This document shows positions 7,018 to 52,502 of a stretch of DNA of 64,000 nt, piece by piece; within the stretch, counting starts at the first letter, position 1, and every line of letters starts with the position of its first letter. The notes beneath the pieces were generated by a model, which did not search any database, was not told the origin of the DNA, and worked only from the letters and a program-made list of their open reading frames with translations. Made by a program: the position numbers and the translations under genes. Origin of the DNA: a virus; the IMG/VR virus record IMGVR_UViG_3300044511_000090, positions 1 to 64,000 of that record; one strand, given 5' to 3'.

Positions 7018-7077
7018 TTAATCGAACAAGAACAGCTTCACGTTGGCGGTCGAGCCAGAGTAGTTGCCGATGGCGAT
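7018..7077 (-). pseudogene. Orphaned original 3' end of gene 7735-8196
   Basis: Encodes IAIGNYSGSTANVKLFLFD*, identical to the C-terminus of 7735-8196 but with different codons. Confidence 0.9.
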
Positions 7078-7727
7078 GACAGAGACTTTTCGACTGACCA
7101 CCCTCTTTTTATTCTCTTTGAAATCGTCAGCCTAGATATTCCGGTAATTTCAGCCCATTCCGATAAGCACATCGTTCTGCCAAAGCACGATATAATCCTA
7201 TTGGACCTCTTATTCCTTTGCTGCTCAATTTGAGTAGCCCATCTTACATTTCCAGGCTTGTAGTCTCCGTCATTATCAGGGAACCTGTCAAGCGAATGGG
7301 AGGGAGACGGCCTGTATCCAACATCCAGCAAGAAATTGCTGAAAGAGTTTGCCCACCTTTCGCAAACTCTTATGCCCCTGCCACCATAGTCTTTGAAGTC
7401 ATGCGACGTTTTTCTTGTGCATCTCTTTTTGATTGCGGCCCACGCCGCGTATTCTGGAGATTGCTTTCTTGTCTTAGATTTACTGCATCCGTGGACAAAT
7501 CTTCGACTCTTGGTGGAATCTCTAGTAGCACATCCGCAGCTTGAATTCCCTGCTAAAAGAGTTGAAGAACTTACAATATCGACATTACCACAATCGCACC
7601 GGCACTTCCAAGAGCACAATGTTTTAGACCCGAACTTTCTTTTGCCTTCGTATGAAATAACAACCCGTCTGCCAATTCGATCACCTGTAAGGTTTTTGAA
7701 CTTTTTACTTTTTGGGAAATCAAACAT
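7038..7727 (-). CDS. Free-standing His-Me finger (HNH-type) homing endonuclease
   Basis: WKCRCDCG, YGGRGIRVCERW, SLDRFPDNDGDYKPGNVRWAT..EQQRN; GAGG SD. Confidence 0.85.
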   Translation of the reverse strand: MFDFPKSKKFKNLTGDRIGRRVVISYEGKRKFGSKTLCSWKCRCDCGNVDIVSSSTLLAGNSSCGCATRDSTKSRRFVHGCSKSKTRKQSPEYAAWAAIKKRCTRKTSHDFKDYGGRGIRVCERWANSFSNFLLDVGYRPSPSHSLDRFPDNDGDYKPGNVRWATQIEQQRNKRSNRIISCFGRTMCLSEWAEITGISRLTISKRIKRGWSVEKSLSSPSATTLARPPT

Positions 7728-7734
7728 GGTAGCC

Positions 7735-8196
7735 TCAATCAAAGAGGAACAATTTGACATTCGCAGTAGAACCAGAATAATTTCCAATAGCGATACTGTC
7801 TATCTCCTCCATTGAAGGTTCTGACGATCCAGTTATCAACGCTGTGCTTGCCACAGGACGAATCGAGCCGTAGCCAGAGAGCTTGAACGGCGCATACTTC
7901 CTGACCTTGACCGTCTCGCTTCCGGTCTGGCCGATGAGTTGGAGATAGACCGTCTGATCGGCCCAAAACCACAAGTAGTCGAAGTCTGTCGGGAAGTTGG
8001 AGTCTTCATCCCATGCCGTGCGAACAGTGGCCGTTGGAATCTGGCCGATGTACGTGTATATGAGCCCGGTGACAGTAGGCGACTCAGAAAATGCGTAAAA
8101 CTCGCTGGCCAAAGTGTCGGATTCGCCGTGGTTGGCGGCGAATGTCGTGCCGTTGACCTCGATTGAGAATCGGTCGATGATGTTCAGGTTTGCCAT
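7735..8196 (-). CDS. Hypothetical (possibly virion) protein; target of the HNH insertion
   Basis: GAGG SD; GC3-rich body switching to AT3-rich in the last ~40 codons. Confidence 0.75.
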   Translation of the reverse strand: MANLNIIDRFSIEVNGTTFAANHGESDTLASEFYAFSESPTVTGLIYTYIGQIPTATVRTAWDEDSNFPTDFDYLWFWADQTVYLQLIGQTGSETVKVRKYAPFKLSGYGSIRPVASTALITGSSEPSMEEIDSIAIGNYSGSTANVKLFLFD

Positions 8197-8461: not shown

Positions 8462-8504
8462 GTCATCCCCTTTTGGTTCGTGATCAGATTGGCCACTTGT
8501 TCTC

Positions 8505-8720
8505 CTACCTTTCGTCGTGATCGGTCTCTCCTCTGAAATGCTTGCCAAGACCTGGACTTGATGCTTGGCCAAGTTCTCGCTGGAATTTCCATCCGCACAG
8601 TTTGCTGCCAGAGCTAATCGGCAGAGGCACTCCGTTAGCGTCTGAGTTGCACATCACTATATCACGCTCGGCGTCAGTTTCAAAAGACCATCCGCCACAT
8701 TTCGGGCAAGCGAAGTCCAT
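8505..8720 (-). CDS. Small Zn-finger protein (paralog A)
   Basis: CPKCGG...CNSD..GVPL.ISSGS..CGW shared with 11330-11515; GGAG SD. Confidence 0.6.
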   Translation of the reverse strand: MDFACPKCGGWSFETDAERDIVMCNSDANGVPLPISSGSKLCGWKFQRELGQASSPGLGKHFRGETDHDER

Positions 8721-8793
8721 TTCTTCTCCAGTTTGATCACAACCATACGGGAACTGATCGGAGTCGGGTCAGTGCGGCGCTGGGCTGGGTTGT

Positions 8794-9012
8794 TCATGTT
8801 TCTTCTCGGATGTACTTGGCGACCTGTTCCAGTTGGTCAGGCGTCAAATACTCTCCAACAAACAAAGCGAACTTCCCTTTTGACACAAGACCGACCTCTT
8901 GGCCACGCAACGAGACTGTCCAGTACGTCCAGTCGTTAGGACGGCGGCACTTCTTGAACTCAAGCTGTTCTGTTGTTGTGCTGCTCACGCTTCCACTCCT
9001 TGATAAACTCAA
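8794..9012 (-). CDS. Small hypothetical protein, tandem paralog of 8960-9256
   Basis: LEFK..RR....WTV.LRG..VG..S.G.F....G..LT...LEQV shared. Confidence 0.6.
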   Translation of the reverse strand: MSLSRSGSVSSTTTEQLEFKKCRRPNDWTYWTVSLRGQEVGLVSKGKFALFVGEYLTPDQLEQVAKYIREET

Positions 9013-9256
9013 CGACTTGTTCCAAATGCTCCTGTGTCAGCCATTGTCCGGCATAGGCCACGAACAAGCCCTGTGACGCCGTGCCGACAGGTTCGCCGCG
9101 AAGCAATACCGTCCAGGACATCAAACCGTCATGACGGCGATTCGGCTTGAATTCGAGAGACGGGGCTTTTATTGGTTCTGGCATACGAGACTCCCTCTGG
9201 CCGTTACTATACACACCCAAGTCGGCAAGCACGGCATTCACCAGCGCCGGATTCAT
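8960..9256 (-). CDS. Small hypothetical protein, tandem paralog of 8794-9012
   Basis: Same shared motif. Confidence 0.6.
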   Translation of the reverse strand: MNPALVNAVLADLGVYSNGQRESRMPEPIKAPSLEFKPNRRHDGLMSWTVLLRGEPVGTASQGLFVAYAGQWLTQEHLEQVVEFIKEWKREQHNNRTA

Positions 9257-9267
9257 CCACGCCCCTG

Positions 9268-9372
9268 TTACGAAAACATCTCAGCTTGAGCCGGTTCAAC
9301 ATCCTCAAACAAGCTGCCCTTGCCGTTCGCTTCTTCGATTCGGCGGCAGGCAATGTCGAAATATTTCAGCTC
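9268..9372 (-). pseudogene. Orphaned alternative 3' end of DNA methyltransferase 9862-10563
   Basis: ELKYFDIACRRIEEANGKGSLFED aligns with CEKYFAAAVKRIEEAWGKYSLFDE. Confidence 0.8.
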
Positions 9373-9390
9373 ACTGCATGTCCTATGAAT

Positions 9391-9408
9391 TGTTATAATA
9401 CAGGAATG
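9391..9408 (+). promoter_or_regulatory. Extended -10 leaderless promoter of HNH gene
   Basis: TGtTATAAT(9391-9399)-N6-ATG(9406). Confidence 0.6.
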
Positions 9409-9921
9409 AGAACAAAACCAACCATCATTGTCTGTAAGAACTGCGGGAAAACGGCATCCATACATTCCTATCGACTTCGGAATGGAACAGGAAAGTATTG
9501 CAGTTCGACTTGCTATTTTGCCAACCGGTGGAAACATGACGGGAATTGCCGCCAATGCCAAAAAAAATCCAAGACACGATTCTGTAATTCTGTTTGTCGA
9601 AAAGCATATTGGAATCGTGAGAGTTATCGACAGCATAAAACTAAGCGTAATTGGGAACGTAAACTGGCATTGATTAACGAGCTTGGCGGAAAATGCTGCA
9701 AATGCGGAATAAACGATCCCCGCGTATTGGACATCGACCATATTGACAGCACACAAAAAAAACGGCCTAAAAAACGCCAATGGACTTGGCATCGTCGTTT
9801 TGCTGATTGGGCAGCTAACAAAGGAAACCTCAGACTGTTGTGTGCAAATTGTCATCGTGTATTAACCTGGAAACAACGTCGATTCGGCCTTGTCAATGGC
9901 AAGTCTGTCCTCATCGAATAG
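9406..9921 (+). CDS. HNH endonuclease with N-terminal Cys-rich repeats
   Basis: CKNCG, YCSSTC, FCNSVC; GGKCCKCG...LDIDHID...NLRLLCANCH. Confidence 0.85.
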   Translation: MRTKPTIIVCKNCGKTASIHSYRLRNGTGKYCSSTCYFANRWKHDGNCRQCQKKSKTRFCNSVCRKAYWNRESYRQHKTKRNWERKLALINELGGKCCKCGINDPRVLDIDHIDSTQKKRPKKRQWTWHRRFADWAANKGNLRLLCANCHRVLTWKQRRFGLVNGKSVLIE

Positions 9922-10563
9922 CGAATATTTTCCCCACGCCTCTTCAATTCTTTTCACAGCAGCAGCAAAGTATTTCTCGCATATTTCGATGCCGATGAAG
10001 CGACGACCGGTACGGACGCAGGCAACGCCGGTGGAACCGCTTCCGCAGTATGGATCGAGAATCGTGTCGGCATCCGGTATAAAGCCGAGACACCATTGCA
10101 TCAAGGCGACGGGCTTTTGGGTGGGGTGGACTCGCTCTATATCCTGTTCGCTGGCGCGAATCATTCCCATCCATCTGTGAGAAAACAATCGCGCTGGCTG
10201 GCGCAAGTTTGTCCATGCCATCTCACAATCGGCCATGTCATTACTTCTGCCTCCTTCCCTCTTGTCCCATATCAACCAAGAATCCATCGCGGGAAGGCGA
10301 TTGCTGTAATGATTCCCACCCCAGAGGATTAGAAACTTGAAATCCAGAAGCGGTCTTGGGTCAAACGGGTGGCAATCATCAATAATCCGCTCAAACTTAC
10401 CGCGAGCAGCTGAACAGTCTCCACCAGAAGGATTGTAACTAATCCCATACGGCGGGTCCGTCACTACCGCGTCCACGCTGCCAGCCGCCAGCGTCGGCAG
10501 CACTTCCAGGCAATCGCCGCGATACAGCACATGCTCGCCAATCTGGACACGCTCGAAGCTCAT
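9862..10563 (-). CDS. DNA methyltransferase (N6-A/N4-C, beta class)
   Basis: GDCLEVL, TDPPYG, HPTQKP, ILDPYCGSGSTG, FIGIE. Confidence 0.92.
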   Translation of the reverse strand: MSFERVQIGEHVLYRGDCLEVLPTLAAGSVDAVVTDPPYGISYNPSGGDCSAARGKFERIIDDCHPFDPRPLLDFKFLILWGGNHYSNRLPAMDSWLIWDKREGGRSNDMADCEMAWTNLRQPARLFSHRWMGMIRASEQDIERVHPTQKPVALMQWCLGFIPDADTILDPYCGSGSTGVACVRTGRRFIGIEICEKYFAAAVKRIEEAWGKYSLFDEDRLAIDKAESTLFPG

Positions 10564-10649
10564 CCCCCGCTCCTGTAGGTGGCCCCGCTGCCGCGCTTTC
10601 CCCCGCAGCAGCGCCCGCCGCAAGTCCCAAACGGCGAGTTGGGCCATGT

Positions 10650-10916
10650 TCAGCATTCTCTCCAGACGCCACGTTCCAAAAATCCGTGCCATTTTTCTTC
10701 ATGCGTCGAAATCAAAATCGACGGCGAAACAGTTATCGTGCGGTCATCATGCTCAGTAATTTTGTGGTGCCGAACGCCGTCACCTAAGTTGCCGAGAAAA
10801 TCCCCGCGCGGAGCCCTGCAATACCAGAGCCCTTGCCACTGGCCGTAATCGCCCGGCTCGTACAAGTGCGGGGAAACATCGGTTCGACGACCCATCATCG
10901 GTTGACTTCCTTTCAC
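10650..10916 (-). CDS. Small protein, DUF6527-like
   Basis: H.ITEH.D.TITVSPSIL...WHGFLERGVW. Confidence 0.55.
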   Translation of the reverse strand: MKGSQPMMGRRTDVSPHLYEPGDYGQWQGLWYCRAPRGDFLGNLGDGVRHHKITEHDDRTITVSPSILISTHEEKWHGFLERGVWREC

Positions 10917-11323
10917 CTATACACCGCCATCGGAACCAAGTCCCGATGCGACATTGCACCAAGCGGCACTTCCCTGAACCGATCCAGCGGAATCGGGCAC
11001 GGCATTCGTGCCGCGTAATAGTTCCACGGTCCAATCCAGACACGCAACCGCTCCAGCCACATGACCGTCGCAAATGATCGGCTTGTTTTGCTCACGGTTC
11101 CGTATGCGTAATGCGCTTCGTGCAACAAGTTCCATGCCCAGCGCCGTTCACAAGCATCCATCTCCCATGCGCAGCTACGTCTTGGCTGGCGACTGAGCCA
11201 TAGCAAGTGCGAGTCGGCGATGAGTCGTTGCTGGTGTGCCACTTGGCGCGGCGGAAACTGCGCAAGGTCTTCAGGACTGACTGGCAGCAGCAAGAGATGG
11301 ACAGTGATAGCGATTATGGTCAT
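10913..11323 (-). CDS. Hypothetical protein
   Basis: Overlap-coupled ORF in a GC-richer island. Confidence 0.5.
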   Translation of the reverse strand: MTIIAITVHLLLLPVSPEDLAQFPPRQVAHQQRLIADSHLLWLSRQPRRSCAWEMDACERRWAWNLLHEAHYAYGTVSKTSRSFATVMWLERLRVWIGPWNYYAARMPCPIPLDRFREVPLGAMSHRDLVPMAVYR

Positions 11324-11329
11324 TCCAGT

Positions 11330-11515
11330 TTACCCGGCATCAGAAGCATCACCCTTGTCGGCCTCGTTGCACTCTTCGCCGCTCCCCATCCAGCCACAGA
11401 TACGACTGCCTGAGCTAATGGATAGCGGCACGCCGCGTATGTCCGAATTGCACCAGAAGGCATCGCCCTCTCTGCCGAACACCGAGCCACCACACTTTGG
11501 ACACTTGAAACCCAT
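11330..11515 (-). CDS. Small Zn-finger protein (paralog B)
   Basis: GGAGG SD; similar to 8505-8720. Confidence 0.6.
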   Translation of the reverse strand: MGFKCPKCGGSVFGREGDAFWCNSDIRGVPLSISSGSRICGWMGSGEECNEADKGDASDAG

Positions 11516-11635
11516 GTCGCCCTCCCTGGAATCAAAAAACAGTGTCAGTCTCAATAAGGCGGATATAACCCCGTGTTTTGGGACACTTTTGGCCCTTATT
11601 GAGACTGATAGCCGTCAATCTGGGCAAAATGGCCT

Positions 11636-11905
11636 CTATTTCTCCGTTGGCACTACACTGATCACTTTGCCACCAATTCCGACCGATACAAGCCAATCAT
11701 GCCCGATTTCTCTAACCCCAGATGCGTAAAGTCTGGCTATTTCGTCGGTGTATGGCACAACGCCGAAGGTATCGCTAAACTTGTCCTGGTCGTGCCACCA
11801 AGCCATACAAACACCATGATCTTCGCTACGAAAGGTGAAAACCTTCGGGCCGTCAAAATAGCAAAAGACCTCAACAGGATTGACAATGCCATCAAACATG
11901 GCCAT
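11636..11905 (-). CDS. Hypothetical protein
   Basis: GGAG SD, overlaps the terS end. Confidence 0.5.
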   Translation of the reverse strand: MAMFDGIVNPVEVFCYFDGPKVFTFRSEDHGVCMAWWHDQDKFSDTFGVVPYTDEIARLYASGVREIGHDWLVSVGIGGKVISVVPTEK

Positions 11906-12602
11906 TGCTCCCGTTCGTGCTCGGCCCAAGCGTAGGACCGTGGTACGCACCATTTGACTCAGGCACGACGATCTCGGCTTCAGGCAGGGGCAACGTCACT
12001 CTTGCCTTAATCGCCGCTAGGATGGCCAATAGGCTCTCCCGCTGGTCATCGGCCACAGACAATGCCATTCCGCCGCTGGTAACATCGACCTTTTGCACTG
12101 GCCGCTGGTTATCCGGCATGACGGAATACTTGTCTTCCAGTGCCTCCAAATGCGGGTCTTTCGAGGCCATACGGTACTTGACACGCTTGGCCGTCTTGCC
12201 GTCGTCGGCCAGTTCGATGTCTACCGACGATATGGCTCTGAGAGCCTGCTTGGGTATCTTGTTCGCTGGCCGATGTGACGGAGCGCCATCGCCAGAGAAG
12301 TCGAGGATGTCGTCTATGGAGGAGTAAGCGAGAGCCCGTCTTTCGTCTCTGGCCTTCTTCCACTCTTCGGCCATCTCGCGTTCGACGAGTTGCCGTAACT
12401 CCTGTTGTATTTGGGAGATACGGAGTTGGACTTCCGGCCTGTTAAGTATTTCCCAGGCAAGTCGAGAGCCGTGTGTTTTGTTTTTGGGTTTTTTGTAACC
12501 TGCCTCTTCATAAGCAGTTGCGGAGCAGCCTGTGCGCACATAGGCCAGCGCAAACTTCTCATATCTTTGTGAGCAGGAGTTGATTTTCAAGCTGACGCCC
12601 AT
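11892..12602 (-). CDS. terS: Terminase small subunit
   Basis: FALAY....ATAYEEAGY....SRLAWEILNRPEV HTH; AISSV...KYRMASKDPHLEAL; KVDVTSGG. Confidence 0.8.
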   Translation of the reverse strand: MGVSLKINSCSQRYEKFALAYVRTGCSATAYEEAGYKKPKNKTHGSRLAWEILNRPEVQLRISQIQQELRQLVEREMAEEWKKARDERRALAYSSIDDILDFSGDGAPSHRPANKIPKQALRAISSVDIELADDGKTAKRVKYRMASKDPHLEALEDKYSVMPDNQRPVQKVDVTSGGMALSVADDQRESLLAILAAIKARVTLPLPEAEIVVPESNGAYHGPTLGPSTNGSNGHV

Positions 12603-51611: not shown

Positions 51612-52502
51612 ATGACCCAGCGCATCGGCCCCCACGAGTTGCACTGCGGCGATGCCATCACGGTCCTGCGCCAGATGCCGGAACGGTATGTGTCGCTGAC
51701 CGTGACGAGCCCGCCGTATGAAGATGCCCGCACCTACGGCGTCGGGTTCCGACTCAAAGGACAGGATTGGGTCGATTGGCTTATCCCGATCATTGTCGAA
51801 TGCTGCCGTGTAACTGACGGGCTTGTGCTTGTGAACGCAGCCGGGAAGGTGAACGACTTCCAGTACACGCCGGTCATGGAATGGCTTGTCACAGACTTGA
51901 CCCGTCAGCATGGGATCGTATGCGGACCGGCCCCATACGTTTACCGGCGCGTCGGCATCCCTGGCAGCGGCGGTCAGCATTACCACCGGCGCGATTGGGA
52001 ACCAGTCTATGCGTTCGCGTTGCCGGATCGACTGCCGTTGAGGTGGAGCGATAACACGGCAACCGGCCACGCGATCCCGGCTCGTATCGCTGCGGTGTCA
52101 CCACGAGGGACAAACGGGGCAAGAAATCATGGCTTTTATTCGTCACCGGATATTGCCAACGCCGGGAACGTAATCAATGAAACGTACACTGCCGCGCAGG
52201 TCCAGACCATACTTGACGGCGGCGACGTAATCGACTGCAAGGTTGGCGGCGGGCTCATGGGGCATCCGTTGGCAAGCGAGAACGAAGCGCCAATGTCGCT
52301 CACGCTCGCTACATGGCTCGTGCGCAGTTACGCGCCACCGGGCGGGCGTGTGCTCGATCCGTTCATGGGCAGCGGGACTACGCTTCATGCGTGCATGGAC
52401 ACCGGCCGGATCGGTGTAGGGATTGACTTACGCGAATCGCAAATCGAACTAACCCGGCGACGGCTACAGTCCGTGACGCCGACGATGTTCGATGAGGCTT
52501 GA
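51612..52502 (+). CDS. DNA methyltransferase (N4-C/N6-A, SPPY)
   Basis: TSPPY, VLDPFMGSGTT, GID. Confidence 0.88.
   Translation: MTQRIGPHELHCGDAITVLRQMPERYVSLTVTSPPYEDARTYGVGFRLKGQDWVDWLIPIIVECCRVTDGLVLVNAAGKVNDFQYTPVMEWLVTDLTRQHGIVCGPAPYVYRRVGIPGSGGQHYHRRDWEPVYAFALPDRLPLRWSDNTATGHAIPARIAAVSPRGTNGARNHGFYSSPDIANAGNVINETYTAAQVQTILDGGDVIDCKVGGGLMGHPLASENEAPMSLTLATWLVRSYAPPGGRVLDPFMGSGTTLHACMDTGRIGVGIDLRESQIELTRRRLQSVTPTMFDEA

Follow-up and report, generated by a model that had tools for sequence, protein, structure and literature searches.

Homing endonuclease genes usually spare the genes that they invade by residing in self-splicing introns, in inteins or between genes. Here we analyse an HNH endonuclease gene that lies, on the opposite strand, in the 3' end of a viral N6_N4 DNA methyltransferase (methylase) gene. 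Both genes are found in a stretch of 64,000 nucleotides (nt), hereafter the window, which is part of the 74-kb viral contig IMGVR_UViG_3300044511_000090 (IMG/VR; lake water). A preliminary description of this DNA had proposed that the nuclease gene came with a new 3' end for the methylase and left a homologous orphan end on its far side. The features of the locus, in window coordinates, are the following:

9268-9366, minus strand: old (native-type) methylase end, KYFDIACRRIEEA...LFED...AQAEMFS followed by a stop codon
9268-9855, minus strand: open reading frame (ORF) of 195 codons, called the bridge ORF after its proposed role; it opens with an ATG 6 nt beyond the methylase stop, crosses the entire HNH gene in antisense and finishes with the old end and the native stop
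9391-9399, plus strand: extended -10 element TGTTATAAT, ending 6 nt before the HNH ATG; a consensus-level match only
9406-9921, plus strand: HNH endonuclease gene, 171 amino acids (phrog_2255, E 6.8e-14, and three more PHROG HNH families at 1e-10 or below)
9862-9921, both strands: overlap of the methylase and HNH genes, 60 nt, tail to tail, with codons aligned antisense
9862-9984, minus strand: substitute (in-use) 3' end of the methylase, consisting of the helix KYFAAAVKRIEEAWGKY and a 15-residue tail that is antisense to the HNH C-terminus
9862-10692, minus strand: N6_N4 DNA methyltransferase ORF with the substitute end in use (PF01555, E 5.6e-20; phrog_67, E 4.4e-50)
9985-9999, minus strand: FIGIE codons, encoding strand beta-2 with the acidic motif that binds S-adenosylmethionine (AdoMet); columns 1-5 of our profile of methylase ends and strand 188-193 in the structural model

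The arrangement is as the preliminary description had it: the methylase, the antisense HNH gene, the 60-nt overlap with the new methylase end and the second end are all present in the sequence, and the C-terminus of the methylase is the one quoted there. In a BLASTP comparison 16 of 35 residues (46%) of the end beyond the HNH gene are identical to the in-use end, with an E value of 1e-7, so the two ends are indeed homologous. The in-use stop codon, TAA, is the reverse of an HNH leucine codon, TTA. The FIGIE codons are the final stretch before the duplicated segment and mark the insertion or target region.

The methylase likely starts at 10647, where it would be coupled to the upstream gene, or at 10563, which agrees with the N-termini of its homologues; 7750 of these were found, mostly 215-240 residues long. 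Its Pfam match has the beta-class order of the DPPY catalytic motif and the FxGSG AdoMet motif. In an alignment of 61 methylase sequences D36, P38, Y39 and G40 are invariant and G174, S175 and G176 nearly so, and the AlphaFold2 model built on that alignment has a mean predicted local distance difference test score (pLDDT) of 84.9. The nuclease is the only credible plus-strand gene nearby. Pfam HNH models match its 171-residue product weakly, below threshold (E 0.015-0.05), and the large protein database holds 39 relatives at 46-62% identity. The protein carries Cys-rich (FCS-like) fingers towards its N-terminus and a His-Me finger towards its C-terminus; among 40 family members H112, N148, C146, C149 and R151 are invariant and N138, N141 and H150 are at least 90% conserved. 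Two CxxC pairs of the structural zinc type (C97, C100, C146 and C149) are likewise invariant in the family. By these conserved residues the product appears to belong to the HNH (His-Me finger) endonucleases.

To see how widely this layout occurs, loci were gathered by alignment-based scans of contig collections, with some loci only partly covered by their contig. Hidden Markov models (HMMs) of the HNH protein, of the methylase body up to FIGIE and of the methylase end from FIGIE on, the last two built from 119 HNH-less homologues, were searched against six-frame translations of every locus with a close HNH. Unlike the alignment-based scans, a scan of viral contigs with the single HNH protein returned no match. 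The same HNH family sits between two methylase ends in 17 further loci, about 18 in all, a recurrence that speaks against chance and bears out the earlier suggestion that the window exemplifies a general strategy. Ten loci are antisense (the window, L010, L011, L090, L091, L101, L102, L103, L104 and L182), two of them, L102 and L104, being cut by contig ends; five (L092 and L105-L108) are sense loci with the HNH gene on the methylase strand; and two (L093 and L180) are scars. Two more contigs, L012 and L109, carry an HNH of the family with no methylase nearby. Body, in-use end, HNH and second end were all matched by HMM in the window, L010, L011, L090, L091, L101, L103 and L182 among the antisense loci and in L105-L108 among the sense ones. 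Along the methylase strand, body, FIGIE, in-use end, HNH and second end follow one another in this order wherever contig coverage lets it be read, and in every locus where the second end is seen it begins 4-13 codons after the F of FIGIE. The methylase bodies at these loci are 23-57% identical to one another, some pairs at 27-32%, and the contigs derive from phages, bacterial metagenome-assembled genomes (MAGs; Pseudomonas-labelled, Hydrogenedentota and Hyphomicrobiaceae) and an archaeal (Woesearchaeota) MAG. Among cultured phages the sole HNH match, 28% identical, is in Synechococcus phage S-SRM01, and the search gave no named phage example of the cassette.

The constancy of the layout bears on two alternative explanations. 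The preliminary description had itself singled out, as the finding that would undo its proposal, a second end that is the remnant of a separate tandem methyltransferase unrelated to the HNH insertion. It is common for a phage to have several methylases, and this contig gives a second, weak match to a methylase at 52299-52496; but a tandem remnant does not account for second copies that start within a few codons of the same post-FIGIE position in every locus where they are seen, that abut the HNH gene (its start in antisense loci, its stop in sense loci) and that have no methylase body upstream of them. The 4-13 codon spacing from FIGIE excludes that case for practical purposes, and we give it next to no weight. 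It is also very improbable that the HNH is a domesticated phage nuclease, such as a terminase-associated packaging HNH, that happens to lie beside a methylase. Terminase genes are indeed close by, namely the small terminase subunit gene TerS (11892-12602; PF03592) here and a terminase-like ORF near L011, but the constant partner of the nuclease in phage, bacterial MAG and archaeal MAG contigs is the methylase end. Moreover, copies of a duplicated target stand on both sides of the HNH gene, the gene runs against an otherwise one-way block, and there are truncated scars.

Which of the two ends is the original can be read from the relatives without a nuclease. HNH-less homologues end in ...YFDIACRRIEEAYRQPDLF..., and the conserved native ending, ...KYFDIACRRIEEAYRQPDLF..., is followed by a short tail. 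The old end in the window agrees with the family consensus, YFDIACRRIEEA. Across loci the downstream copies follow the native consensus, from which the in-use copies deviate: in the antisense clade the Asp of YFDIAC (column 12) is present in eight of nine old ends and one of 11 in-use ends (Fisher p 9e-4), and natural ends have it in 60 of 117 cases. The downstream copy thus looks like the native one. At the DNA level the YFDIAC codons, which in downstream copies are typically TAT TTC GAC ATY GCC TGC, are 79% identical between old ends of different loci versus 62% between in-use ends; beyond them both sets fall to about 51%. Extra DNA conservation in the old ends is what is expected if only alleles with a particular sequence were invaded, and it points to a likely recognition sequence.

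In the model the in-use segment follows the FIGIE strand and forms a confidently predicted helix (residues 196-212, pLDDT about 95), with a tail below 66, which makes it a plausible working replacement. It is spelled differently from the native end: the two ends in the window have 14 of 20 helix residues identical, yet 30 of 60 nucleotides, and across loci nucleotide identity between paired ends is 42-72% with most residues in common. The GC content at third codon positions (GC3) in the window is 0.38 for the in-use end, 0.59 for the gene body and 0.55 for the old end, and the in-use end has a lower GC3 than the old end in nine of 11 loci. By this measure, too, old ends resemble the gene body and in-use ends do not. 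Gene conversion homogenising both ends was considered and rejected, as no locus contains identical DNA tracts and synonymous sites differ almost everywhere.

The different spelling could mean that the HNH gene brought the substitute end with it from a foreign donor, as in the atp6 gene of Allomyces; the respelling would then be donor-recipient divergence and not the outcome of selection. The low nucleotide identity of the paired ends despite their mostly common residues would fit such an import, and so would the discordant histories of HNH and methylase described below. In-use ends of different loci also have traits in common, namely Glu in column 8, absence of the Asp in column 12 and the codons AAA, AGA and ATT. 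What does not fit is the local character of these ends. The part of the in-use end nearest the HNH gene has locus-specific residues of the local old end (in L103 and in L182 the two ends have the same unusual last 8-10 residues), and in the four loci that give a strict result the locus's own old end is the best match (window, L010 and L011) or tied best (L101). Furthermore, the in-use end has a lower GC3 than the methylase body even where the HNH gene has a host-like composition: in L108 its GC content is 0.44, against 0.63 for the body and 0.62 for the HNH gene. We regard import from a foreign donor as possible but doubtful. The pattern seems to be fitted best by a lineage-matched copy that was respelled later, with an ancient import from a related donor as a possible variant.

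We also note a motif in the tails that follow these helices. The pattern Q-x(1-2)-[LMIF]-[LFMIW] occurs in the last 14 residues of 61 of the 119 HNH-less methylase homologues versus two of 119 control windows, and we take the Q-x-x-L-L/F tail motif to resemble the bacterial sliding-clamp-binding motif. The old end in the window retains it (AQAEMF, at 9268-9300); the in-use end has ESTLF only.

The second end seems to be more than a leftover. The preliminary description was right that a homologous methylase end lies beyond the HNH gene, but the end is apparently not idle, as the word orphan would imply: in antisense loci it is the 3' end of a frame of 181-241 codons that is kept open opposite the HNH gene. 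Stops in the antisense frame that is codon-aligned with the HNH gene arise only from the HNH codons TTA, CTA and TCA. This methylase-strand frame has no stop across the HNH body in any of the ten antisense loci, and the three codons account for none of the 157 Leu and Ser codons of the ten antisense HNH genes, whereas in the corresponding methylase bodies they make up 22 of 128 (Fisher p 8e-9). Family members that are sense-oriented or have no methylase nearby contain 4-15 such codons per gene, and the other two antisense frames have 2-7 stops each. The old end lies in the aligned frame in all nine loci where it can be assessed.

The frame is delimited by codons that suggest coupling at both of its ends. 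In each of the eight complete loci an ATG lies between -8 and +9 nt from the in-use methylase stop, in arrangements that include an ATGA overlap (L090, L101 and L182), TAA-N6-ATG (the window) and TAG-N3-ATG (L010 and L011). At the other end, the stop of the old end is -1 to +2 from the start of the next gene in five of the eight loci; in the window the next gene of the minus-strand block (8960-9256, minus strand) has its ATG 11 nt past that stop. L182 was retrieved after the rules for the bridge had been set, and all six predictions held in it. The antisense clade thus maintains three properties together: a stop-free frame, its being in frame with the old end, and an ATG that overlaps the methylase stop or lies at most 9 nt from it. 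We would describe the downstream native copy in this clade as the end of a conserved stop-free ORF that appears to be coupled to the upstream stop. As the HNH proteins are about 55% identical and synonymous sites are saturated, the absence of stops is presumably maintained by selection.

We considered, and rejected, the possibility that the methylase is read straight through into the old end: a stop precedes the insert in all loci, and the bridge frame differs from the methylase frame in five of the eight complete ones (L090, L091, L101, L103 and L182).

Could the open frame be a neutral by-product, or the relic of an ancestor that was read through? The codon-aligned antisense frame is the least stop-prone one, and the chance of finding no stop is 0.2-0.4 per gene in GC-rich loci; the antisense loci form one clade; and a single stop alone parts the methylase frame from the bridge frame in the window, L010 and L011. 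However, the joint probability of no stops is 5e-5 to 2e-8, members of lower GC3 are stop-free as well (L104 at 0.29 and the window at 0.40), and the sense-oriented L108, with a GC3 of 0.69, still has four of the forbidden codons. At the divergence of these HNH genes a relic would have decayed, and the start codon stands beside the in-use stop in five different local configurations. A neutral or relic origin is therefore unlikely.

Similarly, we see little prospect that the bridge ORF encodes a functional protein, whether to inhibit or regulate the HNH enzyme or to carry the native C-terminal tail motif. In favour of such a protein, an intact helix and tail of native type invariably close the ORF, and Q-x-x-L-L/F is common in native tails (61 of 119 homologues, as above). 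Its sequence, though, is dictated by the HNH gene opposite and reads as hydrophobic and of low complexity, and sense-oriented cassettes manage without a bridge ORF.

We propose instead that the bridge ORF would act as a translational bridge, leading to the native stop and on to the next gene. More generally, homing-nuclease genes inserted backwards may carry a selected bridge of this kind: translation would restart at the new stop, run antisense through the nuclease and end at the original stop, which would keep ribosomes along the message and maintain the coupling of the next gene. We put this forward tentatively, at slightly short of an even chance. Sense cassettes would need no bridge because the HNH ORF itself covers the insert. 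What is new here is that the old end is the end of an open frame across a backwards HNH gene; its function as a bridge we infer.

One sense locus has a further peculiarity. In L092 (2791-3468; the Woesearchaeota MAG) the sense HNH ORF continues without a change of frame through the old methylase end to the native stop, giving a fusion of HNH and old end, and it is solely as this fusion that the second end is visible there.

For the HNH gene itself, the preliminary description had postulated a leaderless promoter of its own. The motif TGnTAnnnT-N6-7-ATG is conserved in eight of the nine antisense loci that have the HNH start on the contig, which supports the postulate at sequence level. It ends 6-7 nt before the HNH ATG in the window, L010, L011, L090, L091, L101 and L182; L102 has the same extended -10 element but a leader and a Shine-Dalgarno sequence before the HNH gene. 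The position of the element predicts a leaderless HNH mRNA. Our promoter call is based on this extended -10 layout; a generic sigma-70 -35/-10 scan of positions 8900-10900 found no promoter. Over the same interval there is a single terminator-like site, inside the methylase gene.

Sense-oriented members of the family have predicted HNH promoters of another kind, TTGACA-N17-TAnnnT, embedded in the codons of the in-use methylase end (L106, around 630-683; L107, around 1225-1288). The segment would therefore do double duty in these cassettes.

The nuclease appears to have had a history different from that of its host gene. Pairwise identities of HNH proteins and of methylase bodies are uncorrelated (Spearman 0.26, p 0.26; a small sample), and L103 has an HNH 53-56% identical to those of other antisense loci but a body 27-32% identical to theirs (55% and 29%, respectively, versus the window). 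In the maximum-likelihood HNH tree the antisense loci, together with the long-branched L108, split from an AT-rich sense group with support of 99/99; therefore, orientation is largely a clade trait. L108 is a GC-rich sense cassette on a very long branch inside the antisense clade, and its placement could reflect an independent inversion or a tree artefact.

Degenerate copies are found as well. The scars L093 (2121-2252) and L180 (701-784) have the last 28-44 HNH residues left, and their methylases keep the HNH-derived tail (...LLPGM), an ending that the protein P0046 carries too. Of the bridge ORF, L093 also retains a stub of 28 codons, together with the ATG and the stop before it. These three cases indicate that the nuclease was lost and the spare end retained, as expected for the life cycle of a homing gene. 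At the protein level, native ends predominate among the 119 best methylase homologues, and the genes with such ends presumably carry no cassette.

The cassette lies just after FIGIE, the methylase is completed by a differently spelled last helix, and a native-type end lies beyond the HNH gene. We read the whole as a homing-endonuclease cassette of the HNH type, compact (about 650 bp) and free-standing, that resides in N6/N4 DNA methyltransferase genes at their 3' end, with a proposed bridge, and put the probability of this reading at roughly 0.7.

On this reading the HNH enzyme would recognise the uninterrupted sequence around FIGIE...TAT-TTC-GAC-ATY-GCC-TGC and cut HNH-less alleles, into which the cassette would be copied by repair, with the old end and the downstream DNA acting as one homology arm. 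The respelled substitute end would be immune to the nuclease, and the respelling would also lower recombination between the two copies, which would delete the HNH gene. The Asp codon that in-use ends have lost and the extra DNA conservation of the YFDIAC codons in old ends are at most indirect signs of such site-specific cleavage. Transcription of the HNH gene would start from its own leaderless extended -10 promoter. On the host strand, ribosomes finishing the methylase would restart on the bridge ORF by termination-reinitiation and cross the backwards insert to the native stop, so that the mRNA of the host operon would stay translated and the next gene would stay coupled. The bridge may thus be an adaptation by which a selfish element reduces its cost.

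Several points count against the homing cassette with its bridge. First, we infer cleavage, homing, use of the promoter and translation of the bridge from sequence, and from a small number of loci. Second, in-use ends are closer in protein to the old end of their own locus (mean 63%) than to the in-use ends of other loci (51%), an ill fit to a simple model in which a foreign end is imported. Third, in the HNH-less relatives L004-L007 gaps of 23-190 nt separate the methylase stop from the next gene, so coupling is no universal need, and we do not retain tight native coupling of the two as a general rule. Because HNH-less relatives are not always tightly coupled, protection from polarity or decay may matter more than the coupling itself. 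Fourth, the antisense loci are one clade, and their frame relations may be partly inherited and not gained independently; even so, the persistent absence of stops at saturated synonymous sites still needs selection. Finally, no empty site came to light. Contigs of four lake metagenomes compared with positions 8500-11200 gave no HNH-less allele of the phage and no joint across the HNH gene, a blank that is no evidence of absence, and the databases searched held no near-identical empty site. The window stretch itself is present, whole or in part, in eleven lake or sediment runs, with no RNA run listed among them, which is likewise no evidence of silence, and the partial metagenome matches consist of short fragments identical to the window and of unrelated methylases that pile up on the DPPY region around 10440-10620.

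Three known systems invite comparison. Mobile endonuclease ORFs (mORFs) of fungal mitochondria make gene hybrids in atp6 of Allomyces macrogynus and in atp6, atp9, cox2 and nad3 of Glomus sp. (PMC3630166, citing the Allomyces work; C-terminal duplications in fungal mitochondria also appear in PMC6279837). The hybrids share with our cassette an endonuclease ORF in the 3' part of a conserved gene, a substitute C-terminus upstream and the native one downstream, and two end copies that are similar in protein and divergent in DNA. In our loci, too, the endonuclease lies between two 3'-end copies, the upstream one is in frame and the downstream one is closer to relatives. Our cassette differs in its phage or prokaryotic host, in its HNH in place of a LAGLIDADG or GIY-YIG enzyme, in its DNA methyltransferase target, in having the nuclease on the opposite strand in the antisense clade, and in a substitute end that is not clearly foreign. 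Whereas the native copy in mORF hybrids counts as unexpressed, the native end here appears to terminate a conserved ORF that may be coupled to the stop of the host gene.

The second system is the ShiLan domain of mycobacteriophage DNA methylases, an insertion that has no stops and conceals an HNH gene in another frame (Arsenault, Gosselin and Gogarten 2025, PMC11855218; PMC9957025). There, as here, an HNH homing gene lies within the DNA methylase gene of a phage, no stop interrupts the host-strand frame over the HNH (in ten of ten antisense loci in our case), and leaderless expression of the HNH has been proposed. The ShiLan HNH is on the same strand in another frame, whereas ours is on the opposite strand with codons aligned. 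The ShiLan methylase is thought to be read through the insert; the methylase here stops earlier, on a spare end, and the frames differ in five of eight complete loci. The open frame here would be a separate cistron that restarts at the methylase stop. It was a ShiLan-style read-through ancestor that we had in mind in considering the open frame as a relic.

The third comparison is with free-standing homing endonucleases of T4-like phages, including intronless homing, mobE in nrdA of phage Aeh1 and mobA in gene 60 (reviewed in PMC2988022). According to that review, these genes spread by double-strand-break repair with co-conversion of flanks, as we suppose for the cassette; insertion into critical parts of host genes is tolerated by special arrangements; and overlaps of start and stop codons suggest translational coupling (UAAUGA at nrdA/mobE). 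The T4-type endonuclease genes lie between genes or divide their host gene into two parts that both work, whereas here the gene end is duplicated, and coupling has been proposed there to drive or limit the nuclease, whereas here it would serve a host-strand bridge ORF opposite the nuclease. In our literature searches we came upon no report of a bridge ORF or of an HNH cassette in phages that includes a spare end for a methylase.

Beside introns and inteins on the one hand and intergenic location on the other, the cassette family would represent a third, purely coding solution in phages and prokaryotes, made up of a respelled spare end, a private leaderless promoter and, in the antisense clade, an overlapping ORF. 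The full-length overlapping ORF of the backwards clade seems to exist only to be translated. If this holds, the codon choice of the nuclease is shaped by the host strand through a ban on TTA, CTA and TCA, a natural case of a selfish gene whose synonymous codons are constrained by the opposite strand, and open host frames around other nested nucleases of phage methylases may have the same cause rather than host read-through. From it one might also derive a testable rule by which antisense insertions in operons avoid polarity. The conserved 18-nt sequence, which occurs in a very common methylase family, is the likely target of a small uncharacterised HNH enzyme. For annotation, the locus is a warning that orphan gene ends and long antisense ORFs beside HNH genes may be real features.

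Some of the methylase bodies beside cassettes are themselves interrupted, in L107 (288-665) and L092 (4193-4672) and also in L090, L091 and L105. The interruptions of L107 and L092 contain Cys-rich finger segments with matches to the N-terminal portion of the HNH profile; these may be DNA-binding modules common to the nuclease and methylases, or further nested insertions.

Around the locus in the window, nearly all ORFs of any length are on the minus strand from the small terminase subunit downwards. Two small paralogous gene pairs lie in this surrounding. One, zinc-ribbon-like with C-P-K-C-G-G motifs, is at 8505-8720 and 11330-11554 in the same minus-strand block; the other consists of the overlapping genes 8794-9012 and 8960-9256, which encode proteins of 72 and 98 residues with a common C-terminal motif. 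A further 3'-end event in the window, at 7018-7860, to which the preliminary description had pointed (there as 7038-7727), is real as well: the 19 C-terminal residues and the stop of the gene at 7735-8196 (minus strand) are encoded again at 7018-7077 (minus strand). Its HNH is, as had been stated, of a different family (phrog_374, E 3e-57) and sense-oriented, and the second copy of the 19 residues lies beyond this HNH gene and overlaps its 3' end.

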